From: Candidatus Tayloriibacteriota bacterium
GTDB lineage: Bacteria; Patescibacteriota; Minisyncoccia; Phycocordibacterales; HO2-43-120
Length of the DNA stretch: 64,000 nt
NCBI GenBank assembly: GCA_039934295.1
Contig: JBDTMN010000002.1
Coordinates: 26,725 to 90,724 of the forward strand
Reading direction: 5' to 3'
Below, piece by piece: positions 9,268 through 64,000 of the stretch. Numbering within the stretch: position 1 is the first letter of the stretch; each line of letters opens with the position of its first letter. A program made the position numbers and the translations under genes. The notes below the pieces were generated by a model. It did not search any database, had not been told where the DNA came from, and saw only the letters and a list, made by a program, of their open reading frames with translations.

Positions 9268-9579
9268 TTAATCGTTCTTTTCTTGCTTATTCAATCCCCA
9301 TTGCCACTTCGGCTTTTCGCCCGTAAGATAGCAGATTCCAATTAGCGCGAGAACGAGAATTGCGGTTTGGGGAACAAAACTTATGAGAAAATCGCTTATT
9401 GAATTTTGCGTAGAATCAGTGCGAAAGAAATTGAGCGTAATGAGAGCAAGAAAAACCGCCAGGACCAGCCAGCCCTGCCACGTGGCAGGCGTCCAACCCC
9501 AACCGTAGAGCTTGGCTTTGAACCAGTATCCCTTCGGATTATCTTTCAAATATGCGATGTATTCTTTGAGCATACTCAA
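9268..9579 (-). CDS. Small membrane protein
   Basis: 103 aa with two TM helices and a W-rich segment YGWGWTPATWQGW. Confidence 0.4.
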   Translation of the reverse strand: MSMLKEYIAYLKDNPKGYWFKAKLYGWGWTPATWQGWLVLAVFLALITLNFFRTDSTQNSISDFLISFVPQTAILVLALIGICYLTGEKPKWQWGLNKQEKND

Positions 9580-9584
9580 TTACA

Positions 9585-9803
9585 TTACTGCTCGGAAGAC
9601 CGGTCATCGAGACCTCGTTCTCTTAGAAGCCTGTCATTAAGTGCCTCAAGACCTGCCTTATCATTAGTCTCTATGTCCGTCTGAATCACCGGACCGAGAG
9701 ACCCGTCTTGGTATCGTTCTCTCCACGTGCGTCGACCATCTTGTGAAGAGAAATTTATACCAATTGAAGTTTTACCTTCAATTTTTTCATTTTCATTTGA
9801 CAT
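9585..9803 (-). CDS. Small hypothetical protein
   Basis: 72-aa ORF directly upstream of the previous one. No motif recognised. Confidence 0.3.
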   Translation of the reverse strand: MSNENEKIEGKTSIGINFSSQDGRRTWRERYQDGSLGPVIQTDIETNDKAGLEALNDRLLRERGLDDRSSEQ

Positions 9804-9868
9804 ATAATTTTTTGAAAGCTACTAATGGGTTAATTATATCAGGTAATTTGCTTCCCCACATCGTGGGA

Positions 9869-10357
9869 CTACGTGGCAGAAAGAAACAATTTCAGAGTCT
9901 TCATAAACCCTCCCGTATATTTTTTTGGATTTACCTTCATATCTTCTGCTATGTCTTTTGGATTCGCCCAAAAGACCCTTTTCACCTCATCCTCCTTGAG
10001 CTTTACGGGAGTTGCCTTGCAAACATACACTCTAAACATATGCAATCTTTTAAAAATTTCCCCCTCACCTTGAGACCCTGCTAAACCAATATCTTGAAGG
10101 TCGACACCAAGAACACCCAGCTCTTCCTCCAATTCCCTCTTTGCCGCCTCAAGATAACTTTCCCCGACATCCACATGCCCGGCAGAAGAGTGATCAAGGT
10201 AGCCATCCTTTGCTCGTTCATTTACCAAAATCTCGCCTCTATCGTTTACAAGGTAAATCGCCGCCACTCTATGGAGCAGTCCTTCTTTATGCGCTTTTTC
10301 TCGATCCACTTCCCCAAGCACGGCATCATTTTCATCTACCCAAATGACATTACTCAT
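9869..10357 (-). CDS. NUDIX hydrolase
   Basis: Nudix box GHVDVGESYLEAAKRELEEELGV. The start is probably the internal Met (MSNVIWVDEND) at about 10357, which avoids overlap with the DoxX gene. Confidence 0.75.
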   Translation of the reverse strand: MSNVIWVDENDAVLGEVDREKAHKEGLLHRVAAIYLVNDRGEILVNERAKDGYLDHSSAGHVDVGESYLEAAKRELEEELGVLGVDLQDIGLAGSQGEGEIFKRLHMFRVYVCKATPVKLKEDEVKRVFWANPKDIAEDMKVNPKKYTGGFMKTLKLFLSAT

Positions 10358-24983: not shown

Positions 24984-25082
24984 TACGTAACTTATAACCC
25001 ATAACTGAATGACAGAATAACCAGAACAAAATTTAGATTTTTGTTATGAGTTATTCAGTTATTAGTTATTCAGTCATCAGTC

Positions 25083-26766: not shown

Positions 26767-26784
26767 TTTACATAGAACATGTAA

Positions 26785-26850
26785 CGCGTAACATATAACA
26801 TTTAAGATCGTATCCTCTTGTGTTACAAGTTGCGTGTTGCGTGTTGTGTG
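26785..26850. repeat. Heptanucleotide GTAAC-core tandem arrays in inverted pair (downstream of rpmF, upstream of nusB)
   Basis: gtaacgc gtaacat ataacat ... then gttacaa gttgcgt gttgcgt gttgtgt. The two arms can form an imperfect long hairpin. Confidence 0.55.
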
Positions 26851-26852
26851 TT

Positions 26853-27127: not shown

Positions 27128-27225
27128 CAAGAATGTGTAACGCAAAACGTGTAACGTATAACGCCTGAAAAAATATCCCTTTTTCTTCCGTTACACGTTA
27201 TACGCTACACGCTACACATTTTTCA
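27128..27225. repeat. Inverted pair of heptamer (GTAACR-like) arrays upstream of rpmF forming a long imperfect hairpin
   Basis: Left arm tgtgtaacgcaaaacgtgtaacgtataacg, right arm cgttacacgttatacgctacacgctacaca, separated by a 25-nt loop. Confidence 0.55.
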
Positions 27226-31173: not shown

Positions 31174-31356
31174 GGGGATATTGTATCACAATCCATCGGT
31201 ATGGAAAATTCGAAATTCGAAGAGCGAAATTCGAAAAAATTCAGAATAATTAACTGAAAGATCAGTTGCTTGAATTTAGAATTTTTTCACATTTTTTCGA
31301 ATTTCGAATTTCGGATTTCGTGCTTATATTTTTGCTTTTTGCTATACTATTCGAAT

Positions 31357-35324: not shown

Positions 35325-35403
35325 GGTAGTTTAGTATGATAGTAAGTTAGTATATTAGTATGCCAGAAACTAGAATTCTTCTAAAATACCAACTTACTAT
35401 CTA

Positions 35404-36078
35404 CTAGCTTACTTTCTTAAACTCCTCAACCGTTTCCACAAGATTTTCGCTCTCGAATATCGCCGAGCCCACCACGAGCCGGTCTGCGCCTTCTTCTTTT
35501 AAAAGCTTCGCATTCTCCAAATTTACCCCTCCATCAACTGACACCAAAATCTCCGGATGATTGTTCTTGAATTCCCTGATTTTACCATAGACTCTCTCGT
35601 CAAGCTCTTCTCCCTGGAAGCCAATCTTCGCAATTCCCATAAATTGCACGAATTGAATGTTCTCGAGATAAGGCAAAATGGCATCATTCGGCGTATCGGG
35701 ATTAAGAGCAATCCCCAGTTCAACCACATCTTGAGTTGCAGAAAATATCGAACTTATCTCATTTTTTAGCGCTTCAACATGAATAATAATGCGCGATGCC
35801 CCTGCGCTTATCCAATCGGAAACAACCGCCTCGGGATTCAGGACCATCAAATCAACTTCAAAATCAAGCTCTTTCCAATAGGGCATTCCTTCGTCCTCTT
35901 TCAAAATCTTCTCGAAATCGACGCTGTATTTTCCCTTTACATATGGCCAGCTCTCCCTCGGCACAAATTTCCCGTCACAGACGTCAATCTGCACTAAAGG
36001 AACGAGACCTTTCACTTGCGAGAGATGCTCCTCTAAATCTTCGAAATTTTTGGGGATGATGGCGGGGATTATGGTCAT
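35404..36078 (-). CDS. rpe: Ribulose-phosphate 3-epimerase
   Basis: IIPAIIPKNFEDLEE...LVQIDVCDGKFVP and the RPE barrel pattern. Confidence 0.85.
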   Translation of the reverse strand: MTIIPAIIPKNFEDLEEHLSQVKGLVPLVQIDVCDGKFVPRESWPYVKGKYSVDFEKILKEDEGMPYWKELDFEVDLMVLNPEAVVSDWISAGASRIIIHVEALKNEISSIFSATQDVVELGIALNPDTPNDAILPYLENIQFVQFMGIAKIGFQGEELDERVYGKIREFKNNHPEILVSVDGGVNLENAKLLKEEGADRLVVGSAIFESENLVETVEEFKKVS

Positions 36079-36150
36079 GAAAAAAGCTTTTAGCTTCTAG
36101 CTGTTAGCTACTAGCTTTAAAATTAAAAGCTGACAGCTAATAGCTCTAAG

Positions 36151-44866: not shown

Positions 44867-44914
44867 AAATAGTTATAAAGTAGAAAGTTATAAGGTTATA
44901 AAGTAAAGACTCGA

Positions 44915-45259: not shown

Positions 45260-45292
45260 TTCTTAACTTTAAAACTTTATAACCTTATAACT

Positions 45293-46213
45293 TTACAAAC
45301 TTAAGATTGCTCGCTTTGCGAGCTCGATTGCTCCTTCTTTCGACTTCGCCACAACCAAAAAGCGGTTGTTGTGGCAAAAGATGGCGTCGGCCACTCCGGT
45401 CGCTTTTGCGAGCTCCTCGTTTCTTTTTCCCGCCCAAGCCTCTGGCATGTCTTTTCGGCTTACAAACTGCGCCAAAGAATCCCTGACCGCTTTTACGCCG
45501 TATGTACCATCGGCGCGGTGATACACCACAAAAAGAGGTTCGGGCAATTTCGATAAAACCTCCTGCCAAAAATATTCCTTCTCAAGAACCACAATTCTTT
45601 TGTCCTCTGATTTCCTATAATCTTCAAGGACTCTCTTTTCCCCTTCCATTTCGTCTTGCAAAAACTTGACAGCTCGCGAGAGAATCTTTTTGCAGAGGCG
45701 CACAGTTTCCTCAAATTTCGCAAAAGCCGTGTCGCTTTCTTCTTTCCAGGTGGGGTTCGACATCAAGACAAACTGATGCAAGGAATAGGAGTTGATATCG
45801 GGGAAAATTGGCTTTGAAAGAGCCACTCCGTTGTCATGGGCATCGAAAGGAGCCACGAGCTCAAGGTCGATTCTTTGAGCGACCTCAATTGAGCCTCCGC
45901 AGATTTCCCTTCCAAACTTCTTCCACACCAACCCGAATGCGGCAAAGGGAATTTCGTTTTCTCTTCTTCCCGCCCCGCCTTTCTGATGGTGGTCAAAACG
46001 ATTCTTTTTTTCATCGTAGACATCCCCTACGTCAACGACATATTCTCCCCTTTCCCAGTCCTTCGGGTTTCGACTTCTTACTATCTCGACTTCTTGAGCT
46101 TCTTTTTTCAAGTGAAGAAGAAGAGTGGCCACGGCAAAACAGTCATCCGTATGGAATGTTCCTGTGTGAGTCACAATGACGGGCTTGTTAGTTTTAGAAT
46201 TTTTCTCTTCCAT
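45293..46213 (-). CDS. MYG1/UPF0160 family metal-dependent hydrolase
   Basis: VTHTGTFHTDDCFAVATLLL...DVGDVYDEKKNRFDHHQ is the UPF0160 signature. Confidence 0.7.
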   Translation of the reverse strand: MEEKNSKTNKPVIVTHTGTFHTDDCFAVATLLLHLKKEAQEVEIVRSRNPKDWERGEYVVDVGDVYDEKKNRFDHHQKGGAGRRENEIPFAAFGLVWKKFGREICGGSIEVAQRIDLELVAPFDAHDNGVALSKPIFPDINSYSLHQFVLMSNPTWKEESDTAFAKFEETVRLCKKILSRAVKFLQDEMEGEKRVLEDYRKSEDKRIVVLEKEYFWQEVLSKLPEPLFVVYHRADGTYGVKAVRDSLAQFVSRKDMPEAWAGKRNEELAKATGVADAIFCHNNRFLVVAKSKEGAIELAKRAILSL

Positions 46214-47339: not shown

Positions 47340-48512
47340 TTATTCGTCCTCGCCCACATCTGGCTTCTCGAGCGCTAAAGGCTCAAAGTCGCTCGCTTTG
47401 CCGGTGATGCGAACGACATCTTTGTTTATCTTGCCAAACTCTTTGTCCGATGTATTGAAATGGCTAACCACAGTTGCAAGCGAGTTGCCGAGCTTGCCAT
47501 GATACTCTTGATAGGAGCGGAGATGCTTCTGGAGAGCCTCCACATTTTTGCGAATATCTTTTGCCGATTCTTCTATCTGGAGTGCCTTCAAGCCTTGTAA
47601 CACAGTCTGGAGAAATGCCAGGAATGAAGTCGGAGACACAATCAGCACATGCTTGTCCTTAAAGGCATATTCAATGAGGTCGCGGGTATTGATTTTCATC
47701 CCACCCACTTCTGCGACCAAAAGGTCATAATAAATTGCTTCGTGCGGAATAAACATGAACGCAAAATCCATCGTGCCTTGCGAAGGCTGAACGTATTTTG
47801 CCGTTTCATCAATGCGATTTTTGAGATCGCCTTTAAACGCCTTCTCGAGACGCTCGCGCTCCGCCGGGTCTTTCTCCGCAACAAGACGATTGTAATTTTC
47901 AAGCGAAAACTTCGAGTCAATCGGAATAATTTTGTCTTTCACGTGCACGACCGCATCCACAATCGTGCCATCCTTGAATGGATACTGCATTTCGAAGCTC
48001 CCCGGAGGCAGAACATTTTTGAGCAATGTCTCAAGATAGTATTCGCCAAGTATTCCTCTCTGTTTTGGATTTTTCAAAATGTCCTGCAGGTTTTGTAACT
48101 GGTCGGCAAAGGATACCACCTGCTTGTTGGTCTCGTCGAGCTTGGTCAAGCCCTGTGTCACGTCGCGGATAAGCTTTGCCGACTCGCTAAACTGGGTACG
48201 GACAGAATCGCTCATCTGCTTTGACCCTTCGGTCATTTTGGCGTCCACGGTTTTTCCCAAATCACTCATTTTTGAGTCCACCGTCCTCCCAAGCTCATTT
48301 AGCTGATTCAATAGCAATGTGAGCCCTTGACCGTCTTCCTTCGGCTTATCCCTTTTTCTCAAAAAAAAGAAAAGTAAAGCGCCATTTCCCACGAGGAAAA
48401 TAACCAAAATCAGGACAAGAACGTAGATATTAATTTGCATGGGGGTATTATACCAGAGAACGTGTAACATATAACATGTAACATTTAACGGGTAACGGGT
48501 AACGGGTAACAT
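47340..48512 (-). CDS. rmuC: DNA recombination protein RmuC
   Basis: N-terminal TM helix, coiled coil, then the RmuC core ILGEYYLETLLKNVLPPGSFEMQYPFKDGTIVDAVVHVKDKIIPIDSKF. The true start may be Met-25 (about 48440), because the first 18 codons of the ORF are encoded by a heptamer repeat array. Confidence 0.75.
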   Translation of the reverse strand: MLPVTRYPLNVTCYMLHVLWYNTPMQINIYVLVLILVIFLVGNGALLFFFLRKRDKPKEDGQGLTLLLNQLNELGRTVDSKMSDLGKTVDAKMTEGSKQMSDSVRTQFSESAKLIRDVTQGLTKLDETNKQVVSFADQLQNLQDILKNPKQRGILGEYYLETLLKNVLPPGSFEMQYPFKDGTIVDAVVHVKDKIIPIDSKFSLENYNRLVAEKDPAERERLEKAFKGDLKNRIDETAKYVQPSQGTMDFAFMFIPHEAIYYDLLVAEVGGMKINTRDLIEYAFKDKHVLIVSPTSFLAFLQTVLQGLKALQIEESAKDIRKNVEALQKHLRSYQEYHGKLGNSLATVVSHFNTSDKEFGKINKDVVRITGKASDFEPLALEKPDVGEDE

Positions 48513-48581: not shown

Positions 48582-48971
48582 TTGAATCTAAGAGAGGTTG
48601 GAAGAGTATTTGAGATGACGCATTACAATTTATTCATTTCGAGTTATAATAGCTATATGAAAAAAAGATATTGGTTGAAGGGAGGAGTTATAGGATTTTT
48701 GACTCCCATAATTTTTATACCCTTAGGATATAGTCCCGTTGGTTTTGTAACTGGCCTTCTATTGACTCCTGTTGTCTTTATAACCAAAATGATTTTTGGG
48801 AGTTCAATCCTGGAAGAAAATACTGTGGATGGGACCGTAGTTTCAAATAGTATAGCTTCCGTGTTTCGCTTAGCTGCTGTGTTTTCCCCAATTTTTTGGT
48901 TTTTCATTGGTGCAATTTTAGGTTGGTTTTATGGCAAAATTAAAAACCGAAACTCTAAATCTATAAGCTAA
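48582..48971 (+). CDS. Hypothetical membrane protein
   Basis: 129 aa with 3-4 TM helices. Confidence 0.4.
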   Translation: MNLREVGRVFEMTHYNLFISSYNSYMKKRYWLKGGVIGFLTPIIFIPLGYSPVGFVTGLLLTPVVFITKMIFGSSILEENTVDGTVVSNSIASVFRLAAVFSPIFWFFIGAILGWFYGKIKNRNSKSIS

Positions 48972-48996
48972 CAGCTAATAGCTAACAGCTACTCTT

Positions 48997-51667: not shown

Positions 51668-51809
51668 CCGTAATCATTCGTTCTTCTCATCACAACAGAG
51701 CCCCAAGGTTTCGGCCTCGGGGTTTTTCTTTTTTTGTCATTTATCCAAAAAATGCTATATTTCTTAGATTGGAAATTAGATATTAGTAATTAGAAATTTC
51801 TGCATGTTT

Positions 51810-52432: not shown

Positions 52433-55400
52433 TCACAATAAGTTCTGTAACATCTCGATTATCCATCGCAAAATTTTATACAACGTGTTCCAAAACTCTT
52501 GCAAAATGCCCATGAAAGATGCGCTGAGTGCCTTCAAGACCCCTGCAGTAACATTGACGGGAGAAACCGAGTCGGTATTTGTTTTGATACTTACGCTTAC
52601 GCCCGGAGCTTCCTGGCCAGGATGATTGAAGCGGTAGCCGGCGGGAATATTGTCAGCGGTTTGAGCAGCGTTTGTTGGAGAATATGGCGGCCAGGAGAGT
52701 GAGCCGAACCATGCGGGTTTGGAGGAAAGGTAGAGAGAATTTGGCAGAGTCTGTCCTCCCGTCAAGGCTTCATTTGCAGGAATGCCTTTGCCGAAAATAT
52801 AGTTCTGTTTCCTGATGAACGTGAGTCCGACATCCATATCAAGTTCCTGGAATCCTTCTGATCTCGGCCAAAGACCTATGGCAGTTCCCTGTGCCGGAAG
52901 TGGGTCTAGGTATCCTCCGGTAAGAGAAACAGCATTGCCGGAAAAAGCAGTCGTATGCATGCCTATTCGAGCGCCATTGCTCCATTGCGTTGTAATCGCC
53001 GGACAATTTCCTCCAAAAGCCTGGCAGTATCCTAGCAGTCGCGAAGTTCCGGCGCTCAAGGTTACGACACCGCTTGAACCATCAGATGCGCGACTAGTGA
53101 GGGTACCTTTGATGCCGAGCCCGGCGACAGGGCTCCAGTCTAGCCAATATATGCCTTGGCTCGGTAGGGCAAATCCCGTGGAGGCTCCATTGCCGATGTT
53201 CGGCTGGCCGAGACTATATGCACCTACGACATTACCGATGGCACTAAAATTCCTGGAAAAACGCTTGAAGGCAAGAAAGCCCGATGTCCAGTTCCTAAAG
53301 AACATTTCTTCCGAATCGCTTCCAAAATAGCCGTCTGATTTGAATTCGCCTCCCTGCAAATAATTTCCTTCATATAGATTGTAGCTATTATGAGAACCAT
53401 GGTTGACGTTCACACTGCCGTCAGGCATATAATTGTAGGCGAAAACATTACCTACGGAACTAAAGTTTATTTCAAGAAGCGGGAATGATTTGTAAACGAT
53501 GTTATCTTCAAACAGACATCCGGTATTTCCTCCGCTCAAAAATCCAGAGCCATTTGTACCGCCATGGTTGAGCTCGTCGAGGAAGGAATGTCTGACCTCG
53601 CACCCCAAGCTATCATTAAAACTTATCGAGTAATTACTCATGTGTCTGACTTTGACATTCTTGACCCATGAAGCGTATGTGCCTCCAGCGCTTATTCCAA
53701 ATTGAGTGGTGGCATTTGACCCGTCAATGGTCAGGTCTTCAATACCGACATACCTTGAGGTTGCATAATTCGGCGCAGTGATGCTTGGCTGTCTCCCTGA
53801 AAAATCAACGATAAGAGGCGGGGAGAAGCTAAGGGCGCTACCTGACTTCCCAGTCAGAACCACAATCTGGGATTGGATATTTTCGTAGCCCGAGACTGAT
53901 ATAGTCGGTAGAGATGTTTTATTTTTTCCGCTTATTTTGACTATATTTCCAACTGTATATGGTGATGAGTCAGAAACGCTGACTTGAGTGCTTCCCTTCG
54001 AAGCGCCTGAAAGGACCGGCACGGCAGAAACATTGTAAAATTCAGATCCGCGTATATTCACACAGACGCTTGGAACATAACAATCAAGAATAGTACTCGC
54101 TCCTGCTCCGCGAAGCGTTATATTACTCTTAAAAGATGCGACGATCTGGGTCAAGATCTTATAGGTTCCCGCGGGCAAATAAACAATATCATTTGCCACC
54201 GCGGCGGTGATGGCACTATTTATGGCTGGAGCGGCATCGGTAGCTCCAGTTTTATCCGCATTGTAGGGCGCTTGGGTGACATCAATGAGATGAGTGCGAT
54301 TTGTCGGAATCCCTCCAGTAACGCCTGCGGTAACTCCAGGAATCCAGTTGGCCAAACGGTTTGAAGGTATCAAAGCAGATGATCCGCCTGGAGTGGTTGC
54401 TGCAACACCTGCCGACGGAGGCGAGACATTTCCGCCGTTATCTGTAGCCGTCACTGTGTATGTATACGTCGTACCTGGGGAGACGGTGAAGTCCTGGTAG
54501 TACTGCTGTTCCGTATCATGATACGGAGCTTGGTACGGTATGTGCGCAATAGTCCCTATCTGGGTTCCATTCCTATATATAGTATACGAAGTAATGGTTC
54601 CGGTTGTTGGCGTTGAGCGCAACCAGATAAGGCTGATTTGGTCTGGCGCCACGCCGGCAGCCGATACATAGGTCGGCGCGGGCACGCCACTTACTGAAGA
54701 TAAGTTGAATGTTGCTGTAACTGTCGTATTTGAAGCTACAGTGACTACACATGTCCCCGTTCCACTACATCCTCCTCCAGACCAACCGGTGAAGGTAGAG
54801 CCCGAAGTAGCTACAGCGGTAAGAGTTGAAACTGTGCCAGAGGTGAGGCCTGAAGCCGAACAGGTACTGCCACAACTCACAGATCCTCCTGTGGAAGTCA
54901 CCGTACCTCCTCCCGTGCCTGCCTTGGTGATCGTAAGAGTAAATGTTGTTGGCGTCGCTACTCCACTAGTAGTAACCGATAAAGCGGCTGACGGAACGGA
55001 GTTATTGGGAGCTCCCGCGTTGTCATAGGATGATATAGTGTATGAATATGTGGTGCTTGCCACAAGACCAGAGTTGGCGAAAGAGGTACCGGATGTTACC
55101 GTGCCCACTTGAGCCCCTCCTCTCCATACTTTGTATCCCGCCACGTTTCCTCCCCCAGTATCAGTCGAAGCTGTCCATGAAATAGTTGCTCCTGTTTGGG
55201 TTACGTTTGATGACGAAAGATTTGTAGGTACGGACGGAGCTTGTGTGTCTGAAGGAGAGCCGGAACCACTACCATCTGTAGCGGTAACACTTCTAAATCC
55301 GTAGTCAGTATCCGCGCCTCCATATGCCCTGAGCCAGCCTATGCCGGGTGCACCACTGGCAAAGGTGCTGTCAGTAGTCGTAAGTATGGAAACATTGTTG

Positions 55401-57745
55401 ACGTAAAGGGTGATGGTATTGCCGATCATCGTGCCTTTGATGGTACTGTTGTCAGTAAGAAATGGGGCTCCCTGTGCGGCACTCAAATTGGCCAATACCG
55501 TGAAGTTACCTAACGCACCATTCCAGCGAACGATAGAATAATATTGAGTACCAGTTGGACTGAGACCGTAGGTCAACTCATAGCCAGTATTGGAATGGGC
55601 TGAGATACTGCTACGTAGACGAATCTCGAGTTCCTCAACAGCACTTCCTGTAGGATTCACCGTATGCACAACAGCAGTGACTGTTTGATCTGGACCCCAA
55701 GTGCCGGAGAGTATAGCGGTAGAATCATCATAGCCACCTGAGGGCGGCTGTGTGCCATATACCAATCCATTTGCCATACGCATATCAGTCCAGTCTAGAC
55801 CTGTCGCCTTGCCGTTGATCCAGTTGCCGGATTCTGATAGAGGATTTTCTGCGCCACCGGAGAAAGTTGTGACATAGGTACGGGGATTGCCTGCTGAAAC
55901 CGCCTGCGTGGTTGCGCTCGCGGAAGATGATTGGGCCGATGGATTCCCTGCCGCGTCTTGCGCTAAGACTGTATATGAATATGAGGTGTTTGCGGTAAGA
56001 CCAGTACTCGAATACGAATTGGTGCTTGGTGTAGCTACTTGTGTGCCGTTTCTAAATACTTTGTATCCTGTAACCCCTACATTGTCTGTTGAAGCAGTCC
56101 AGGATAGGTTTATCTGGCTCGAAGATACCGCGGAAGCCGAAAGGTTCGTAGGGGTCGAAGGTGCGGTGGTGTCTGGGACAACAGAGATAGTCTCAGAGCA
56201 GGAGGCAGTGGTTCCTCCGTTTGATCCGGTACAACTCCAGAGACGCGCAGTCGAGGTGTCAGTAACATCTGCGAATGTGCCCGATGTGCACTGGTTGAGA
56301 GTGGTTGAACACAGACCGTTGACCGCTGTCCCCCCTCCTCCCCCCACTGCATTCAATAGCTCGGTGATTTCTTGAGCAGAGAGTGCTCGGCTGTAGATGC
56401 GGACTTCGTCAATAGAGCCGTTAAAGACCCAGTTCGGACCGAAGATGTTGTTTATAATGACAGATTTACTATTTGCATCAGTGGTCCCACTAGCGGCGGC
56501 TTCAGATTTTTTGACACCGTCCACCCAGATGCTGACTTTTGAACCGTCATACATACCGACAAGATGGTGCCAATTTGAATCAGTTATGGTTGGAGCCGCT
56601 CCGGATGAGTACTTCACCCCTCCGCTTGTGATTTGAAATTGTGGATTGAACGCATAGTTGTCAGAATACAAGCTCCATTCTATAGTTGCATAAGGACTTC
56701 CTTTTGTGACCAGATATTTCAATTGACCCACTTCATTATTACTCACTTGCTTAATCCATACTGAAACAGTCATGGCGTTTAACCCATCGAGTGCGTTAAT
56801 GTCTTTCGCATCGACATAATCATCCACCCCGTCAAACTTCAATCCCTGCCCGATCTTTCCCGTGGTAAATGTCGGTCCGTTTATGAGTGTGCCGGTATTT
56901 GATCCCACGGAGTCGTTAGCGTTACCGTCGAAGGCCCAGTAGCTTATGAGTTTGCCAACGGAGGTCGGTGGGGGCGGAGTAGGAGTGACTCCTCCACCTG
57001 TGGAGTTGTATATGTCGGTGATTTCTTGAGCAGAGAGTGCTCGGCTGTAGATGCGGACTTCGTCAATAGAGCCGTTAAAGACCCAGTTCGGACCGAAGAT
57101 GTTGTTTATAATGACAGATTTACTATTTGCATCAGTGGTCCCACTAGCGGCGGCTTCAGATTTTTTGACACCGTCCACCCAGATGCTGACTTTTGAACCG
57201 TCATACATACCGACAAGATGGTGCCAATTTGAATCAGTTATGGTTGGAGCCGCTCCGGATGAGTACTTCACCCCTCCGCTTGTGATTTGAAATTGTGGAT
57301 TGAACGCATAGTTGTCAGAATACAAGCTCCATTCTATAGTTGCATAAGGACTTCCTTTTGTGACCAGATATTTCAATTGACCCACTTCATTATTACTCAC
57401 TTGCTTAATCCATACTGAAACAGTCATGGCGTTTAACCCATCGAGTGCGTTAATGTCTTTCGCATCGACATAATCATCCACCCCGTCAAACTTCAATCCC
57501 TGCCCGATCTTTCCCGTGGTAAATGTCGGTCCGTTTATGAGTGTGCCGGTATTTGATCCCACGGAGTCGTTAGCGTTACCGTCGAAGGCCCAGTAGCTTA
57601 TGAGGTTACTTGAGGGAATAGCTTGAGCGCGCTGGGAAGAAGTGTAGACGTTATTAATTTGCTTGTTGAGTGTGGAAAAACTTAAAACTGCTACTAATAA
57701 AAGAAACGCTGTGGCAATAATGCCAAGAATGTGTTTTTTATACAT
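52433..57745 (-). CDS. Giant secreted/anchored surface protein (1770 aa): two identical LamG/ConA-like lectin domains, fibronectin-III-like domains, Thr/Ser/Gly-rich linkers, C-terminal right-handed beta-helix-like region
   Basis: N-terminal signal anchor. Duplicated about 196-aa segment LISYWAFDGNANDSVGSNTGTLINGPTFTTGKIGQGLKFDGVDDYVDAKD... (LamG-like). FN3-like PSTPTNLSASAVSSSQINLSWTASTDNVGVTGYKVFRNG. A later region with NxxG / parallel beta-helix-like repeats. Confidence 0.7.
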   Translation of the reverse strand: MYKKHILGIIATAFLLLVAVLSFSTLNKQINNVYTSSQRAQAIPSSNLISYWAFDGNANDSVGSNTGTLINGPTFTTGKIGQGLKFDGVDDYVDAKDINALDGLNAMTVSVWIKQVSNNEVGQLKYLVTKGSPYATIEWSLYSDNYAFNPQFQITSGGVKYSSGAAPTITDSNWHHLVGMYDGSKVSIWVDGVKKSEAAASGTTDANSKSVIINNIFGPNWVFNGSIDEVRIYSRALSAQEITDIYNSTGGGVTPTPPPPTSVGKLISYWAFDGNANDSVGSNTGTLINGPTFTTGKIGQGLKFDGVDDYVDAKDINALDGLNAMTVSVWIKQVSNNEVGQLKYLVTKGSPYATIEWSLYSDNYAFNPQFQITSGGVKYSSGAAPTITDSNWHHLVGMYDGSKVSIWVDGVKKSEAAASGTTDANSKSVIINNIFGPNWVFNGSIDEVRIYSRALSAQEITELLNAVGGGGGTAVNGLCSTTLNQCTSGTFADVTDTSTARLWSCTGSNGGTTASCSETISVVPDTTAPSTPTNLSASAVSSSQINLSWTASTDNVGVTGYKVFRNGTQVATPSTNSYSSTGLTANTSYSYTVLAQDAAGNPSAQSSSASATTQAVSAGNPRTYVTTFSGGAENPLSESGNWINGKATGLDWTDMRMANGLVYGTQPPSGGYDDSTAILSGTWGPDQTVTAVVHTVNPTGSAVEELEIRLRSSISAHSNTGYELTYGLSPTGTQYYSIVRWNGALGNFTVLANLSAAQGAPFLTDNSTIKGTMIGNTITLYVNNVSILTTTDSTFASGAPGIGWLRAYGGADTDYGFRSVTATDGSGSGSPSDTQAPSVPTNLSSSNVTQTGATISWTASTDTGGGNVAGYKVWRGGAQVGTVTSGTSFANSGLVASTTYSYTISSYDNAGAPNNSVPSAALSVTTSGVATPTTFTLTITKAGTGGGTVTSTGGSVSCGSTCSASGLTSGTVSTLTAVATSGSTFTGWSGGGCSGTGTCVVTVASNTTVTATFNLSSVSGVPAPTYVSAAGVAPDQISLIWLRSTPTTGTITSYTIYRNGTQIGTIAHIPYQAPYHDTEQQYYQDFTVSPGTTYTYTVTATDNGGNVSPPSAGVAATTPGGSSALIPSNRLANWIPGVTAGVTGGIPTNRTHLIDVTQAPYNADKTGATDAAPAINSAITAAVANDIVYLPAGTYKILTQIVASFKSNITLRGAGASTILDCYVPSVCVNIRGSEFYNVSAVPVLSGASKGSTQVSVSDSSPYTVGNIVKISGKNKTSLPTISVSGYENIQSQIVVLTGKSGSALSFSPPLIVDFSGRQPSITAPNYATSRYVGIEDLTIDGSNATTQFGISAGGTYASWVKNVKVRHMSNYSISFNDSLGCEVRHSFLDELNHGGTNGSGFLSGGNTGCLFEDNIVYKSFPLLEINFSSVGNVFAYNYMPDGSVNVNHGSHNSYNLYEGNYLQGGEFKSDGYFGSDSEEMFFRNWTSGFLAFKRFSRNFSAIGNVVGAYSLGQPNIGNGASTGFALPSQGIYWLDWSPVAGLGIKGTLTSRASDGSSGVVTLSAGTSRLLGYCQAFGGNCPAITTQWSNGARIGMHTTAFSGNAVSLTGGYLDPLPAQGTAIGLWPRSEGFQELDMDVGLTFIRKQNYIFGKGIPANEALTGGQTLPNSLYLSSKPAWFGSLSWPPYSPTNAAQTADNIPAGYRFNHPGQEAPGVSVSIKTNTDSVSPVNVTAGVLKALSASFMGILQEFWNTLYKILRWIIEMLQNLL
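56361..57604. repeat. Apparently perfect 590-bp tandem duplication (56361-56950 and 57015-57604) with a 64-nt linker, inside the giant gene
   Basis: The ORF track shows two identical 79-aa + strand ORFs 654 nt apart. My read of the nucleotides shows identity from tcggtgatttcttgagcagag to cccagtagcttatgag in both blocks. Confidence 0.8.
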
Positions 57746-57916: not shown

Positions 57917-60793
57917 CTACCGAATAATCCCTACATATTTAAGCCAACCGAGGAAAGCACCCGCAACGCCTGCCCAATAGGAAGTCGACTGGGTTGTCGG
58001 TGCCGCGGTTATGGTAATCTCACCAACTTTGTATCGGCTGTTCCCTGCATCAGACACCCCAGATCCGGGAGTGAAGACGAGGCGTTCAGAACCGACGTAC
58101 ATACCAACGAGAACGTCGTATGATCCAACTGGGATATCATCGATGGATTTGGATGATGGAGTAGACATGGTTCCTGCTGACCACTGATCGGTCGGAGGAT
58201 TTGGGAAGAAGCCGAAGCTAACTACTTTGCTCCGATCAACTTTGTTGTTCAGGAATACGAATACCGACCAGCTTTGCTTTCCTAGAGAAAGTCTGTACGG
58301 TCCTCCAGACCAGTTCAGAGTGTAATTGAGGGTTTGGCCGACTTGGATGCTCGAAGGAGCATTCCAAGGAAGAACGGTGGGTTGAGTTTGAACCTGTTGA
58401 ATAGCTGGAACTGAAACTGCCAAATCTCTAGAGACTGAAGCGCCTGCACTGTTTCTGCACGTGAGCGTATAGTTGGCATTTGAAGTCAACACTCCTGTAT
58501 TGATAGCCTCGCTAGCTCTGTATGAAGCGTTGCTGAAGTTTGGACCATTCAGAGTACAGCCCGTTGCATTTGTCGCCGACCATACCAATGTCGTAGATCG
58601 GACATCGTTGGTGATAGGTTGTGAAGTTCTAAAATCAGTTATCGAAGGAGCAGGTGCATTAGTAGTGTTTGGAGCCGCCGTAACCGTAATCTCCCCGACC
58701 TTGTATCGACTGCTACCTGCATCAGATACTCCGGACCCTGGAGCAAAGACCAGACGTTCCGAGCCGACGTACATACCAACAAGGACGTCATATGAACCGG
58801 GAGGAATGTCAGAAGTAGACTTGGATGATGGAGTAGACATGGTTCCTGCAGGCCACTGCGCCGTTGGTGGATTTGGGAAGAAGCCAAAGTTAACTTCTTT
58901 GCTCCGATCAGCTTTGTTGCGCAAGAATACGAATACCGACCAGTTTTGCTTTGCTAGAGAAAGTCTGTACGGTCCTCCAGACCAATTCAAAGTATAGTTC
59001 AGAGTCTGACCAGCTTGGATAGTAGAAGGCGCATTCCAAGGGAGGACGGTGGGGGTTCCGGCTGCTGGGTTGGTAGTAACGGGAGGAAGTGTCGTAGTTG
59101 GAGGAGGATTGGTTGTTGCGGGGGGATTGGCGGGAACAGGTGTTACCGGAGGGTTTGAAGGGGTTACTGGTGTAACCGTTGTTGGCACATACCTAAAGAC
59201 TACCTTTGATACTTGGCCAGCAGTTATATTCACTGGCACCGAACAAAAACCAAGAGAGCAGGTAACATTGGTTTTTGAATATGATGATTGACTGCCGATG
59301 AGACACTCTGTCCCCTGATTGTTGAGGCCTCCGCCTGCAAATGTGCACGAAGCCGAGTATTCATCATATCCAAAAAGATCGGTGGCGTATGCGGTGTGTT
59401 GACCTACTGACGGATTAAATTGCCCTGCTCCTGTGCCGGAGCCTAGAGAAACTGTATACGGGTTTGCTGCTCCTACGGAAGAAATACTGTCCACGGTCGC
59501 CTGTGTTCCGGAAATAGGATTGAGATCGGCATCTACTCGCTTGATGATGAGGTTGGGAGAAAATGTGGACACGGTCCCAGCCCCAGAACCGGTACTTATA
59601 AAACTTGCCCTACTTGCACCTACAAATGGCGCAGTTGAAGGAGAAACTCCGCTCTGCTGACCATTGTAGACTATCACGTCAGTCGAACCGCTGAACCTAA
59701 CCCCGTCGGAAGAAATCTTGACTTGGTATTTTGTGCCGTTCGTAGAACCAACCATGTCGTTTGGTAGATCTATAGAAAGAAACCATTGGGCCGACGTAGA
59801 TTGGTTGTCGATGGTAAGAGTCTTTGTGTAGTTTTTACCGGTAATATTGACATAATATCTAGCGATGGAAGGGTCTATGATAATAGCGTCTCGCGGCCAC
59901 ACATTATACGGTGCAGTTGGGGAGAAATTTTGTATGTAGACCTTAGATAGAGTACACGAAGATGTATTGGTCTCTGACGGACACGTACGCACAGCATACT
60001 GATAATCCCTCACTACCTTGTGGGATGTCTGATACAGTCTCATCGATGAGAGGTTCGGACTAACTATCTTCAAGGTAGATGGCGGGCTCCAAGTCTTTTC
60101 CCCATCTATGGAATAACTCACTTGAATAGACGAGCCGACGACGGCATTGGCGGAAACAGTAAATGGAGTGGCGGGAACCGAAGTGAAATCCACTTGTCCA
60201 TTGCCTATAGATCCACCTATAGTTCCAGAAAATATTCTGGTAGTGCTTAGATTGCTCAATGTCACCGTATTGGTCGGATAGACAACGCGGACTGAAGAAG
60301 TTTTCACTGTAGAAAGAGCTCCCAGTAAAATATACATCTGTTCACCGCGATAGGCGGTTTTGGTCGATGCTGCAAAAGCTTCAAGCACGATGAACTCTGG
60401 AGCTTTCGGTGTGACCTGTGTAGCTGTTTGTCCGCCTTGTACACCACCAGTGGCTGTAGAGGTGACTTTGTCCAAATATCGCTCTTCAACCCAACCCGTG
60501 CCTGCATAATCAAAGTCAACCGCCCATGACCAAGTACCGAGACTATTGGACAGTGCTGGAACATTCGGTCGTATTGTACCGACAAAGTCTTTTTTGGCAG
60601 TGTTTCCATTTGTTAGTTCAACAGAAACGTTGGAATTGATCTTAACGCGATCACCTGTCTTAAACTTGGTTGAAATCTGAGAAGCTGTCGGTGTAACCCC
60701 TTGAGCATGAATCGGGTTAGCTACTATAAAGGTGAAGGCCAGTACAATCGCCGACAAAGCTAAGAAACGTGCATATGTTTTCATAAAAATCAA
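57917..60793 (-). CDS. Giant secreted surface protein (958 aa) with internal 130-aa repeats and a Pro/Thr-rich linker
   Basis: Signal peptide MIFMKTYARFLALSAIVLAFTFIVANPIHA, linker PVTPSNPPVTPVPANPPATTNPPPTTTLPPVTTNP, two diverged copies of TVLPWNAPS(T/S)IQ(A/V)GQTLNYTLNWSGGPYRLSL... and a hydrophobic C-terminus. Confidence 0.65.
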   Translation of the reverse strand: MIFMKTYARFLALSAIVLAFTFIVANPIHAQGVTPTASQISTKFKTGDRVKINSNVSVELTNGNTAKKDFVGTIRPNVPALSNSLGTWSWAVDFDYAGTGWVEERYLDKVTSTATGGVQGGQTATQVTPKAPEFIVLEAFAASTKTAYRGEQMYILLGALSTVKTSSVRVVYPTNTVTLSNLSTTRIFSGTIGGSIGNGQVDFTSVPATPFTVSANAVVGSSIQVSYSIDGEKTWSPPSTLKIVSPNLSSMRLYQTSHKVVRDYQYAVRTCPSETNTSSCTLSKVYIQNFSPTAPYNVWPRDAIIIDPSIARYYVNITGKNYTKTLTIDNQSTSAQWFLSIDLPNDMVGSTNGTKYQVKISSDGVRFSGSTDVIVYNGQQSGVSPSTAPFVGASRASFISTGSGAGTVSTFSPNLIIKRVDADLNPISGTQATVDSISSVGAANPYTVSLGSGTGAGQFNPSVGQHTAYATDLFGYDEYSASCTFAGGGLNNQGTECLIGSQSSYSKTNVTCSLGFCSVPVNITAGQVSKVVFRYVPTTVTPVTPSNPPVTPVPANPPATTNPPPTTTLPPVTTNPAAGTPTVLPWNAPSTIQAGQTLNYTLNWSGGPYRLSLAKQNWSVFVFLRNKADRSKEVNFGFFPNPPTAQWPAGTMSTPSSKSTSDIPPGSYDVLVGMYVGSERLVFAPGSGVSDAGSSRYKVGEITVTAAPNTTNAPAPSITDFRTSQPITNDVRSTTLVWSATNATGCTLNGPNFSNASYRASEAINTGVLTSNANYTLTCRNSAGASVSRDLAVSVPAIQQVQTQPTVLPWNAPSSIQVGQTLNYTLNWSGGPYRLSLGKQSWSVFVFLNNKVDRSKVVSFGFFPNPPTDQWSAGTMSTPSSKSIDDIPVGSYDVLVGMYVGSERLVFTPGSGVSDAGNSRYKVGEITITAAPTTQSTSYWAGVAGAFLGWLKYVGIIR

Positions 60794-61597: not shown

Positions 61598-62023
61598 TTA
61601 AAACTGCGCTATTTCATTCGAAGAAACGATACTCCAAATGCCTCCGGTTTCTTTTGCCAGCGTCTCCACATTGGAATAGGTATTTTGGAATCGAGAACGG
61701 GTCCGAATGAGCAAATCCACTCCCTGGGGCATTATTGAAAAAATCGTGCATTTGTGCTCGGTCTCCGTTTCCGAAAGTGAAATCTCATCTCCTCCAGATG
61801 ACGGCGAATATGCGCTATTTGTTGATAATTTTAAAAGCGCGATGTCTCTGCAACTTTTCGCAAATGACGAGCTCATCTCCTTAAATTCAGAATCTAAAAC
61901 ATTGAACCTCGCCGAGAATCCCCCGAGATTCAGCGTGAAAACAATGGTCGTCATAATAAGAGAGATGAGAATGACCGAAATCAGCGCGATGAACCCTTTT
62001 TCTTTTTTAGATGAACACGTCAT
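61598..62023 (-). CDS. Prepilin-like / pseudopilin protein
   Basis: N-terminus KKEKG|FIALISVILISLIM has a prepilin-type cleavage site G-F and a hydrophobic helix, but no Glu5. 4-nt overlap with the upstream gene. Confidence 0.55.
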   Translation of the reverse strand: MTCSSKKEKGFIALISVILISLIMTTIVFTLNLGGFSARFNVLDSEFKEMSSSFAKSCRDIALLKLSTNSAYSPSSGGDEISLSETETEHKCTIFSIMPQGVDLLIRTRSRFQNTYSNVETLAKETGGIWSIVSSNEIAQF

Positions 62024-62538
62024 TGAATCAATTTGATTAACTCATATACTTCTCCTTTAATCGTAAGGAAAACTTTCACGAATTCTTTTCCGTTCGCGCT
62101 CTCGTGTTCAAATGATAGAGCGTCAATGGAAACAAAATCGCTATTCAATTTATTTTCGGGTGATGCTCCTCTTCTTAGCATGATACTTTTTCCCGCTGGG
62201 TCAAAACTCAACGTTAAAGAAATTCCGGACCCGCGCAGAGAGAGCGTTGACCCAGAACTACCCAATGCGGGCACTGATACAGACGTAACTCCGGCAAACA
62301 AGGAATCAATCTTTTTGAGCAAGAAATTTGTCTCTTCAATGAGCAGGACTTTTTCGCTCATGGCATTTTCGTTTGCAATAACCTGATATGCAGTCTGAAG
62401 AAAACTTCCCATGATAAGAGCAAGAAGGGCAATGTAAATGAGAGACTCGATGAGGGTGAAGCCGCGGGAATATGTAACATGTAACTTGTAACATGAAACA
62501 TGGAAAAATCTTTTTTGCATTTTTGATTTCATGGTCAA
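62020..62538 (-). CDS. Type IV pilin-like protein with long leader
   Basis: SRG|FTLIESLIYIALLALIMG is the canonical prepilin N-methylation/cleavage motif with Glu5. The leader is 20-26 aa depending on which Met is used. Confidence 0.7.
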   Translation of the reverse strand: MTMKSKMQKRFFHVSCYKLHVTYSRGFTLIESLIYIALLALIMGSFLQTAYQVIANENAMSEKVLLIEETNFLLKKIDSLFAGVTSVSVPALGSSGSTLSLRGSGISLTLSFDPAGKSIMLRRGASPENKLNSDFVSIDALSFEHESANGKEFVKVFLTIKGEVYELIKLIQ

Positions 62539-62560
62539 ATGTTAAATGTTACATGCTACA
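62471..62560. repeat. Inverted pair of heptamer GTAACA-type arrays. One arm is inside the pilin leader-coding region, the other in its 5' UTR
   Basis: atgtaacatgtaacttgtaacatgaaacat (62471-62500) and aatgttaaatgttacatgctacatgc (62537-62562) are mutually reverse-complementary heptamer runs flanking the start codon region. Confidence 0.5.
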
Positions 62561-62575
62561 TGCTTCCTGTCATTC

Positions 62576-63937
62576 CTAGTTTCCTTTTACAAATATTATT
62601 TTGTTTGGAGTTGCAACATACATTGTATTCCCCTCGCAGTCGAGGCTTATGCCGTCTCCATTCAAGTTGATGTCTCCAATTTTTACAATGTTGCTCGGGT
62701 CTTTCACATTCCATATTTGAAATTCTTCCGCCCCAACTAGTGTTGCAAGAAATGCCTTGTCGCTTCGAACAAAAATGTCATTCACACTCTTCCCTATTTT
62801 TTCCGACCCAACCGAGCTCTCAGATTTTGTATCAATAATGTGCAATTCATGATTAGACGCGATCGTTCCTCCATAAGTTCTTCCGAGATAAACCGTATCC
62901 CCCAATGGATAAAGACTCTTCCCGCTCTGGGTTAGAAATTGAGTCAATGTAATACTTCCGATTTCCTTGATATCACTGGGATCATTCACATCCAAAATTC
63001 TCATTTGTTTACTGCTGGCGGTAGCTAGATACGCCTTCGCTCCGACAACATAGATGTCGTTTACTACATTCCCTATCTCAAAGCTTCCGAGCAATGAGGG
63101 ACTAAGAGGGTCAGAGACATCTATAACGGAGAATTCAGGGTAGCTCGGTGAATTATTTGTTCCGAGAAACACTTTTTTATTCGAATAGAAAATGCTACTC
63201 GAAGTTCTATTGTCATTTATTCCTACAATGGAAGGCAACTTCAATTCTTTTTTAAGCAATGGATTAGAAGAATCAGACACATCAATAATCTGAAGTTGCG
63301 CGTTTATGCTTCCATTTGCAACATACGCGTAATCTCCTGCTACATGCAGAGCGTTGAGACCTGGGCCCGTGGTTATACTCGATACTATTTGAATATCTGA
63401 ATGATTAGAAATATCCACAATGTGAAAATCGGGTTGAAGCGGAGTGCTTGAATTCGTCGTCACATATATTTTATTATTGAGAACATCAATTTGGGTGATG
63501 TCAGTGAGACTTGAAATAGACGCAATTTCGCTTGGATTACTCCAATCATCGGTTAGAAACATGTCGCAGGTATCCGTTCCGAGAGCGTTTTCTGAATTCG
63601 TCGCAATTCTTGATAGTACCACTTGGTGTTTTCCACCATCCCAACTGACAGCGCTTTCTACAGATTTCGCAAAATTCGTTATCGGTTCAACAGTAATTGT
63701 TTTTTCAAAAATCCCGTCGGCAACCAAAGTGTTTTGCAGAGAATAGAAATCTTCGAGTAGAAAGATTTCGAGTCCTGATTTTGCTTTTGCGAGAGCGATT
63801 AGCGACAGTTCCGCCTGCAAAATCATGCTCCTGCTCCCGAAAGAAACCAAAATCACGGCAGTTATAACCAAAATACCCACTGAAAAAGCAACAAGTATTT
63901 CAAGCGTGCTCATGCCTTGTGAAGATTGTTCGTTCAT
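62576..63937 (-). CDS. Pilin-like N-terminus fused to an LVIVD-repeat beta-propeller (putative minor pilin / adhesin)
   Basis: QG|MSTLEILVAFSVGILVI is a prepilin motif with Glu5. At least four LVIVD-type repeats follow (YAYVANGSINAQLQIIDVSDSSNP, KVFLGTNNSPSYPEFSVIDVSDPLSP, KAYLATASSKQMRILDVNDPSDI, KAFLATLVGAEEFQIWNVKDPSNI). Confidence 0.65.
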   Translation of the reverse strand: MNEQSSQGMSTLEILVAFSVGILVITAVILVSFGSRSMILQAELSLIALAKAKSGLEIFLLEDFYSLQNTLVADGIFEKTITVEPITNFAKSVESAVSWDGGKHQVVLSRIATNSENALGTDTCDMFLTDDWSNPSEIASISSLTDITQIDVLNNKIYVTTNSSTPLQPDFHIVDISNHSDIQIVSSITTGPGLNALHVAGDYAYVANGSINAQLQIIDVSDSSNPLLKKELKLPSIVGINDNRTSSSIFYSNKKVFLGTNNSPSYPEFSVIDVSDPLSPSLLGSFEIGNVVNDIYVVGAKAYLATASSKQMRILDVNDPSDIKEIGSITLTQFLTQSGKSLYPLGDTVYLGRTYGGTIASNHELHIIDTKSESSVGSEKIGKSVNDIFVRSDKAFLATLVGAEEFQIWNVKDPSNIVKIGDINLNGDGISLDCEGNTMYVATPNKIIFVKGN

Positions 63938-64000
63938 TTGATTTCACCAGTTGATCGTTCCTTCATCTCCAATTGAAATTGACTTTGTTTGACCGTCCTC

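Follow-up and report, generated by a model that had tools for sequence, protein, structure and literature searches.

The 64,000-nucleotide (nt) stretch analyzed here (the window; contig JBDTMN010000002.1) is Patescibacteria DNA and closes with a run of pilin-like genes on the minus strand. The largest of these, at 62576..63937 (-), encodes a protein of 453 amino acids (aa) that matches NCBI protein ABI430_01030, from a Candidatus Taylorbacteria metagenome-assembled genome (MAG), at 100% identity; its open reading frame (ORF), a Pfam LVIVD match and an AlphaFold2 (AF2) model together point to a bimodular minor pilin, in which a pilin module carries a seven-bladed LVIVD beta-propeller. Downstream of it lie the genes for a small canonical minor pilin (172-aa ORF; 62020..62538, -) and for a 141-aa pilin-like protein without a glutamate at position +5 (Glu5; 61598..62023, -). 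We consider it likely that the three belong to a compact type IV filament operon, as its second, third, and fourth pilin genes, with the 453-aa product as a modular minor pilin.

The genes are tightly packed. The 453-aa gene starts 6 nt past the stop of an upstream gene; 37 nt separate its own stop from the earliest possible start of the 172-aa gene, for which the in-frame ATGs at 62532 and 62520 are likelier starts; and the stop of the 172-aa gene overlaps the start of the 141-aa gene as ATGA. No convincing intrinsic terminator was found 3' of the 141-aa gene. An earlier reading of the letters of the window (the sequence-only reading) had described three overlapping or adjacent minus-strand genes in an operon that runs beyond the window end, and both descriptions hold, with all three ORFs at the coordinates given above. 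The last bases of the window (63944..64000, -) comprise the final 18 codons (…EDGQTKSISIGDEGTINW) and the stop of the upstream gene. They are identical to part of L001, a 3-kb public Logan contig that matches the window wherever the two overlap and adds ~1.6 kb past base 64000. On L001 this gene (1199-1639) encodes a 146-aa GspH/ComGD-like pilin, and directly upstream of it is a platform gene (Pfam T2SSF 4.5e-53; NCBIfam GspF 5e-84 and PilC 7e-71). Because the identical contig carries both a further pilin gene and a platform gene, the operon extends past the window end and includes pilus machinery. No further extension came from exact-protein look-ups of the 141-aa and 958-aa products or from an exact-DNA scan of Joint Genome Institute (JGI) metagenomes.

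The N-terminus of the 453-aa protein, MNEQSSQG/MSTLEILVAF (here and below the slash marks the predicted cleavage site), has the pattern of a class III signal peptide, with Gly8 at -1, Met9 at +1, and Glu at +5. The predicted prepilin leader, MNEQSSQG, is encoded at 63914..63937 (-), and its cleavage after Gly8 is suggested by conservation: among 43 full-length homologs, whose alignment was used for conservation counts and as AF2 input, G8 (-1) and E13 (+5) are each at least 90% conserved, and the consensus reads G/xSTLEILIA. Related loci were collected by scanning one genome per GTDB species with a 10-sequence alignment as query, which found 87 relatives (80 loci kept); the genome of the window is not itself the species representative there, and the best genome match was 40% identical. 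The prepilin motif is present in 78 of these 87 copies, with E (68) or D (10) at +5 and G at -1 in 71. Gln, not the usual Phe, is the commonest residue at +1 in the LVIVD-pilin family (34 of the 78 motif-bearing copies; F, M, and S occur in 20, 5, and 5 copies, respectively), and the window protein itself carries Met. Pfam N_methyl is matched by 10 of the 43 homologs (best 2e-5) and LVIVD by 41, and the family N-terminus aligns in register with that of the neighboring 172-aa canonical pilin family, with the G and E matched (hhalign E 6.8e-5). The alternative of an ordinary signal anchor, checked in these alignments, fails on the conserved Gly(-1)/Glu(+5) pair and the in-register match to canonical pilins.

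Structure prediction returned the architecture of a pilin stalk plus propeller that had been proposed for this protein. The AF2 model (predicted local distance difference test, pLDDT, 92.5; predicted template modeling score, pTM, 0.86) divides into a pilin module (residues 1-113), a linker (114-135), and an LVIVD propeller (136-451), with pLDDT >90 over the propeller domain. The pilin module consists of a 53-residue N-terminal helix, alpha-1 (residues 9-61 by DSSP; 63755..63913, -), whose hydrophobic N-terminal half is the proposed membrane anchor and filament core, followed by a four-stranded antiparallel sheet (residues 70-74, 77-87, 90-99, and 104-113; 63599..63730, -). A model of residues 1-128 alone gives the same stalk-plus-sheet arrangement (pLDDT 87.4; helix 11-61). 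The modeled helix and sheet fit the topology of the pilin lollipop, and membership at the level of the fold is topological, not statistical.

The propeller (62585..63532, -) is modeled as 28 strands that form seven four-stranded blades. It matches Pfam LVIVD (E 9e-12, 44.6 bits; gathering cut-off 20.2 bits), a repeat that we take to be InterPro entry IPR013211, as well as Beta_propel (2.5e-6); in the same Pfam scan, reported like the NCBIfam scan down to E <= 1, the RCC1 family gave no match. Six clear x-x-I-(I/V)-D-(V/I)-S motifs occur at residues 171, 215, 269, 312, 365, and 406 (FHIVDIS, LQIIDVS, FSVIDVS, MRILDVN, LHIIDTK, and FQIWNVK), and the seventh blade is degenerate, so that an earlier count of at least four repeats was right in kind and too low. 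Foldseek searches of the full model against the PDB return generic seven-bladed WD40-type propellers (E ~1e-10, TM 0.7-0.78), none of them pilus-specific. The sole two cysteines of the protein are C124, in the linker, and C434, in blade 7; both are present in 25 of the 43 homologs, neither in 15, and a single one in 3. Because the two co-vary, a disulfide clasp between Cys124 and Cys434 that closes the propeller ring is likely, and it would fit an extracytoplasmic location.

The flanking small pilins differ in how closely they follow the canonical pattern. The 172-aa protein carries RG/FTLIESLI, with the cleavage site after ORF residue 26, and scores above the cut-offs of Pfam N_methyl (25.5 bits, E 8.7e-6; gathering cut-off 21.2 bits) and TIGR02532; 66 orthologs have G/FTLIET. 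Against PDB profiles its pilin matches are limited to the N-terminal helix. The 141-aa protein begins with KG/FIALISVIL, that is, Gly10 followed by (F/Y)IAL(I/T)S and a hydrophobic helix; across its family (67 loci) an acidic residue at +5 is never present, G10 is conserved, and C58 and C92 are invariant. Its N-terminus reads as non-canonical rather than as a standard prepilin motif, and the protein has no Pfam, NCBIfam, or PDB match. Minor pilins that lack Glu5 include GspK and PilX. Thus, of the prepilin-type N-termini that the sequence-only reading assigned to all three genes, those of the 453-aa protein (by alignment) and the 172-aa protein (by hidden Markov model, HMM) stand, and that of the 141-aa protein, with a prepilin-like Gly and no Glu5, is non-canonical.

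The upstream 146-aa pilin (MLHVKCTAG/FTLIEILVV) matches N_methyl (1.2e-6), ComGD (9.4e-6), and GspH (1.6e-5). The best equivalog scores all fall short of their cut-offs (ComGD 26/70, GspH 25/80, ComGE 22.7/49, and GspI 18/44), and PDB sequence profiles, consulted to decide which of the classes H, I, J, or K each small pilin belongs to, gave weak matches to the N-terminal helix or nothing. Slots are here assigned from gene order and size alone, no member reaching an equivalog cut-off. By position, the 172-aa pilin would occupy the GspJ/PilW slot and the 141-aa protein the GspK/PilX/ComGG slot; from order and size, we infer that the propeller pilin would correspond to GspI/PilV. In JGI annotation, homologs of the propeller pilin are named PilV or PulG.

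The same gene order recurs in relatives, whose ORFs were labeled by single-pass phmmer. In the closest relative, L085 (60% identical), the genes run from the C-terminus of an ATPase through platform, pilin, LVIVD pilin, and pilin to a Glu5-less pilin. This order is shared by ~60 of the 80 Patescibacteria loci, in which it comprises an ATPase (~410 aa), platform (~360 aa), pilin (~150 aa), LVIVD pilin (~470 aa), pilin (~165 aa), and Glu5-less pilin (~135 aa). The last gene usually encodes a highly conserved PulG/PilA-like major pilin of ~155 aa (KG/FTLIELLVVIGIIAILA…; N-terminus of the type 'KGFTLIELLVVIGIIAILA'), and all seven genes are present in 41 loci. T2SSE and T2SSF matches lie upstream in ~60 of the 80 loci, and each locus with a T2SSE-type ATPase match has a single one (64 matches, 64 loci). 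The ATPase scores best as GspE or PilB, without the N-terminal 95-170 residues of those models; neither it nor the platform reaches an equivalog cut-off. Gene content resembles the comG operon or the E-F-G-H-I-J-K core of a type II secretion system (T2SS). Pilus machinery is thus present, as a platform gene upstream on identical DNA and as a GspE/PilB-type ATPase in L085 and the related loci. Of the neighbors that the sequence-only reading had named for a check beyond base 64000, the pilC-type platform (L001) and the pilB-type ATPase (L085) were found, and pilM and a prepilin peptidase were not, in the Pfam-annotated Jorgensenbacteria locus L002.

The operon varies among lineages. In Jorgensenbacteria (L002, at 9312-10004; L003, L004, and L033), an extra gene for a 230-aa multi-pass membrane protein stands between the first pilin and the propeller pilin, and a homolog is encoded downstream of the operon in L022 and L069. 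This protein, considered as a prepilin peptidase, has no Pfam or NCBIfam match; it may be a divergent prepilin peptidase or an assembly factor. The slot of the Glu5-less pilin holds ORFs of 673-1315 aa in L049, L076, and L077, and that of the propeller pilin holds ORFs of 782, 729, 813, and 711 aa in L028, L061, L071, and L079; more than one operon slot therefore accepts extra modules. L062 and L066 have a second LVIVD-pilin gene (463 and 504 aa) after the major-pilin gene, which suggests paralogous, possibly alternative, tip modules.

The family is widespread. A first search yielded 372 homologs, most with 96-98% query coverage, and a profile search of 1.84 billion cluster representatives yielded 11,375 proteins at E <= 1e-30, including many giant multi-propeller LVIVD proteins. 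About 100 of the best 150 matches are proteins of 440-550 aa that are matched end to end from the N-terminus, and therefore share the pilin-plus-propeller architecture. By record title, nearly all relatives from the GTDB scan belong to Patescibacteria (Taylor-, Azam-, Vogel-, Brenner-, Terry-, Lipton-, Jorgensen-, Wolfe-, Nomura-, Doudna-, Uhr-, and Dojkabacteria), with few records labeled otherwise. The LVIVD profile also matches giants of 3,000-6,000 aa (e.g., P0121-P0131) in 12-25 stretches. One protein of 1,998 aa (P0124) has a pilin-like start, with profile positions 9-459 aligned to residues 3-482, and continues into further propellers.

For the 453-aa protein as a modular minor pilin, the following mechanism is proposed. 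In line with established type IV filament biology, a prepilin peptidase would cleave the precursor after Gly8. The hydrophobic alpha-1 and Glu5 would then dock the propeller pilin with the three other minor pilins in a priming complex on the platform, as for GspHIJK, FimU-PilVWX, and ComGD-GG, and the ATPase would drive the filament primed by this complex. This complex would stay at the tip of the filament with the propeller exposed, where the ~35-kDa LVIVD module would bind a host-cell or other surface ligand. These last steps are modeled on two systems. In TM7x (Nanosynbacter lyticus, Saccharibacteria), PilX2 of T4P-2 is a minor pilin with a heptabladed propeller and a proposed tip adhesin, the deletion of which halves host binding while filaments are kept (PMC11623550). 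In Streptococcus sanguinis, the bulky von Willebrand factor A (vWA) pilin PilB has been modeled at the tip, and the prediction for modular pilins in general is exposure at the tip (Raynaud et al., 2021; PMC8179133). A ~35-kDa propeller would be too bulky for the filament body, and would therefore be exposed at the tip; by this analogy, the propeller pilin is probably located there. The sequence-only reading had proposed a pilus-displayed propeller that acts as a tip adhesin or minor pilin, and the results support it. Gene structure, conservation of the prepilin motif, predicted fold, conserved synteny with ATPase and platform, and wide distribution were obtained directly; tip location and adhesin role are argued by analogy.

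A number of results weigh against this reading. The window protein itself matches neither Pfam N_methyl nor TIGR02532, even at E <= 1; its PDB sequence-profile matches to pilins are weak (E 0.07-0.2); and Foldseek with the pilin module alone retrieves no solved pilin from the PDB, the best match being at E 0.04, to tyrosine-phosphatase fragments and unrelated folds. No PilM/N/O, PilT, or Peptidase_A24 occurs within 10 kb in L002, and Pfam scans of 18 additional ORFs of the window, which encode housekeeping or surface proteins, turned up no prepilin peptidase, PilT, or PilMNO and no other pilus gene. A major-pilin gene is not adjacent after the operon in this window, nor in L005, another Taylorbacteria locus. 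Finally, conservation is higher in the propeller than in the other minor pilins, which is unexpected for a host-specific, fast-evolving adhesin. The missed N_methyl HMMs and the lack of a structural match to solved pilins would also suit a signal-anchored surface beta-propeller that merely adjoins pilin genes. Such a protein would leave unexplained the Gly(-1)/Glu(+5) pair at fixed spacing before a hydrophobic helix, an N-terminus in register with canonical pilins and, in 10 of 43 homologs, recognized by N_methyl, a fixed place between pilin genes in ~60 loci, and the long alpha-1 helix with four-stranded sheet of a pilin topology; we regard it as very improbable.

The conservation of the propeller bears on what it does. 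Its median pairwise identity is 0.48, compared with 0.34 for its own pilin module, 0.30-0.37 for the other minor pilins, and 0.45 for the platform, and the conserved residues in the 43-homolog alignment are mostly blade-framework positions. Such high conservation suggests either a ligand common to many lineages or a structural or regulatory role like that of PilY1. The second option is the main rival to our interpretation: the filament would be the same, and the propeller would be not an adhesin but a cis-fused analogue of the C-terminal propeller of PilY1/PilC that primes assembly, or caps the filament or counteracts its retraction, possibly in a metal-dependent manner. Conservation at the level of the platform, concentrated in the blade framework, is what this role would lead one to expect, and in PilY1 itself it is the propeller that forms the conserved 'carrier' and touches the complex of minor pilins at the tip (PMC8179133). 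However, no PilC/PilY1 family match was obtained in the Pfam scan of the 453-aa protein at E <= 1, the Foldseek matches are generic WD40-type propellers, and there is no retraction ATPase nearby to counteract, either in L002 or in the related loci with their one T2SSE-type match each. TM7x PilX2, moreover, is dispensable for filament extrusion yet needed for host binding (PMC11623550). On balance, we think a PilY1-like role unlikely.

The composition of the operon raises a second alternative, ranked next: a Com-like DNA-uptake pilus or short pseudopilus that is not adhesive, in which the propeller captures DNA or other cargo. The comGA-GG genes are matched in number and type (one ATPase, one platform, four minor pilins, and one major pilin), the first pilin matches ComGD and GspH best, and ComGE is matched by the 172-aa pilin as well as by 2 of the 43 homologs of the propeller pilin. 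The single ATPase match per locus and the lack of PilM/N/O and PilT families in L002 point the same way. The motor and platform argue otherwise, since both score far better as GspE/PilB (517 vs. 242 bits for ComGA) and as GspF/PilC (275-283 vs. 142-148 bits for ComGB). In addition, no DNA-binding feature was detected, neither comEC nor comEA is among the flanking genes examined, and the TM7x propeller-pilin system made no contribution to competence (PMC11623550). A Com-like function is therefore judged improbable, less so than the non-pilin explanation and more so than the PilY1-like one.

Within the preferred interpretation of a modular minor pilin, a more specific version can be offered, tentatively and at low confidence. 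The LVIVD propeller pilin would be the second-slot (GspI/PilV) core minor pilin of a seven-gene, ComG-sized minimal filament system that has no PilT or PilMNO of its own and is widespread in Paceibacteria-type Patescibacteria. It would carry a PilY1-like propeller fused in cis to a priming pilin, and its conservation would imply one shared ligand, such as a cell-wall glycan or DNA, and not host-specific recognition. If true, this would open a way to study attachment or feeding in uncultivated Paceibacteria.

The pilin genes are also marked by two tandem arrays of a GTTACAT-like heptamer (62472..62564, -), detected by Tandem Repeats Finder (TRF) and pattern statistics. Array 1 (62537-62564) lies between the stop of the propeller-pilin gene and the next start; array 2 (62472-62502) lies in the leader-coding part of the 172-aa gene, the leader of which ends in ...CYKLHVTYSRG/. 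The same heptamer encodes the leader of the upstream 146-aa pilin, MLHVKCTAG/ (L001 1192-1215). L085, which has short leaders, lacks the arrays. A 7-bp unit does not divide into whole codons, and adding or dropping one in the 172-aa gene would put the pilin body out of frame with its start codon, so that a slipped-strand on/off switch is possible there; in the upstream pilin gene, each heptamer unit contains an ATG, so that some unit is always in frame. The imperfect array copies, and the similar arrays upstream of housekeeping genes, count against such a switch.

Short 7-bp (some 8-bp) tandem arrays of 2.5-5 copies, with differing units, occur at many places in the window (25043-25074, 26770-26852, 27138-27217, 31206-31343, 35331-35419, 36085-36117, 44871-44904, 45265-45302, 48459-48512, 48966-48991, and 51768-51798). 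About half end 3-7 nt from the start of a downstream ORF or enter it, housekeeping genes included, and the pattern GTTACNNGTTACNNGTTA has 18 matches in the window against 0.26 expected. At 48512-48440 (-), eight heptamers run into TATAAT-ACCCCC-ATG of an RmuC gene, with TATAAT 6 nt before the likely start, an arrangement suggestive of a leaderless-mRNA promoter. L005 and L085 have none of these arrays. As a whole, the arrays may represent a promoter architecture, an expanding element specific to the lineage, or phase variation.

Immediately downstream of the pilin genes, the same strand encodes two very large putative surface proteins. The 1770-aa protein (52433-57745, -) combines two lectin-like Laminin_G_3 domains with fn3 domains, and its gene contains a 654-bp tandem duplication (56335-56634 / 56989-57288; 96% identity over the 300 nt compared). 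The 958-aa protein (57917-60793, -) has no Pfam match and an internal 672-bp repeat (57999-58298 / 58671-58970; 82% identity). Elsewhere in the window, a DNA polymerase III gamma/tau-type gene (DNA_pol3_delta2, AAA; 16738-19014, -) is split by an intein with a LAGLIDADG homing endonuclease (Intein_splicing 8.6e-20, LAGLIDADG_3 3e-7).

Among the devices by which the ultrasmall, host-dependent Patescibacteria may attach and move, type IV pili have the best support, and to our knowledge experiments on their pili have so far been made on Saccharibacteria alone. For the far larger uncultivated Paceibacteria-type lineages, the analysis defines a compact and conserved operon whose confidently modeled propeller pilin is the obvious candidate for a tip module. 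Residues 115-453, with one predicted disulfide, offer a concrete target for ligand screens, antibodies, and labeling in cryo-electron tomography (cryo-ET).

Among known systems, the 453-aa protein has the N-terminal pilin module, the short linker, and the domain not specific to pili by which modular pilins are defined (Raynaud et al., 2021). Dataset S1 of that survey contains IPR012902-IPR013211 architectures in which IPR013211 is present in 1, 2, 5, and up to 12 copies, the 12 in a Falkowbacteria protein; the IPR013211 motif is there called 'of unknown function', and the class is assigned neither a structure nor a function (PMC8179133). The pilin-LVIVD architecture is thus already catalogued, widespread, and uncharacterized, and embodies no new principle. 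New here are a confident structural model, the predicted Cys clasp, a seven-gene operon that is conserved and in which the propeller pilin has its slot position, and the pattern of conservation. In our literature search, LVIVD and pilins were found together only as an incidental co-occurrence in an unrelated preprint. Like PilB (vWA) and PilC (lectin) of S. sanguinis, the protein joins a small pilin module through a short linker to a bulky module that would fit only at the tip; unlike in those pilins, the grafted module is a propeller. LVIVD repeats (PF08309, 42 residues) were first described in Methanosarcina cell-surface proteins (PMC2447325), and those reported here likewise score above the Pfam cut-off in a surface-protein context; most LVIVD proteins, however, carry an ordinary signal peptide or are giants with multiple propellers, whereas here a single propeller is borne on a pilin.

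The placement of four tandem minor-pilin genes after ATPase and platform recalls GspH-I-J-K (T2SS), FimU-PilV-W-X (type IVa pili, T4aP), and ComGD-GE-GF-GG, and the last minor pilin, as in GspK and PilX, has no Glu5. In contrast to these core sets, the pilin in the second slot bears a propeller, and the major pilin, when present, is last instead of first. In the T4aP of Pseudomonas and Neisseria, PilY1/PilC likewise places a seven-bladed propeller at the tip with four core minor pilins, a placement that is proposed here. PilY1, however, is a non-pilin with an ordinary signal peptide and the signature IPR008707, and docks non-covalently; the propeller described here is covalently fused to a pilin and has a prepilin N-terminus, such that the 453-aa protein may work like PilY1 without being a member of that family. 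The closest parallel is TM7x PilX2, with which the protein was compared by description. Both are Patescibacteria minor pilins that combine a lollipop module, here a predicted one, with a C-terminal seven-bladed propeller and are encoded among minor pilins. They differ in that PilX2 belongs to Saccharibacteria and has a propeller of RCC1 repeats and a signal peptide reported to be non-canonical, whereas the protein described here comes from a Paceibacteria-type lineage, has LVIVD repeats and a conserved Gly(-1)/Glu5 pair, and is encoded in a self-contained operon of ATPase, platform, and pilins. The use of LVIVD in one and RCC1 in the other points to independent grafts of different propeller families. 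A pilus-tip propeller would thus be acquired by pilin fusion, as in TM7x PilX2 with another propeller family, where PilY1 docks its own non-covalently.

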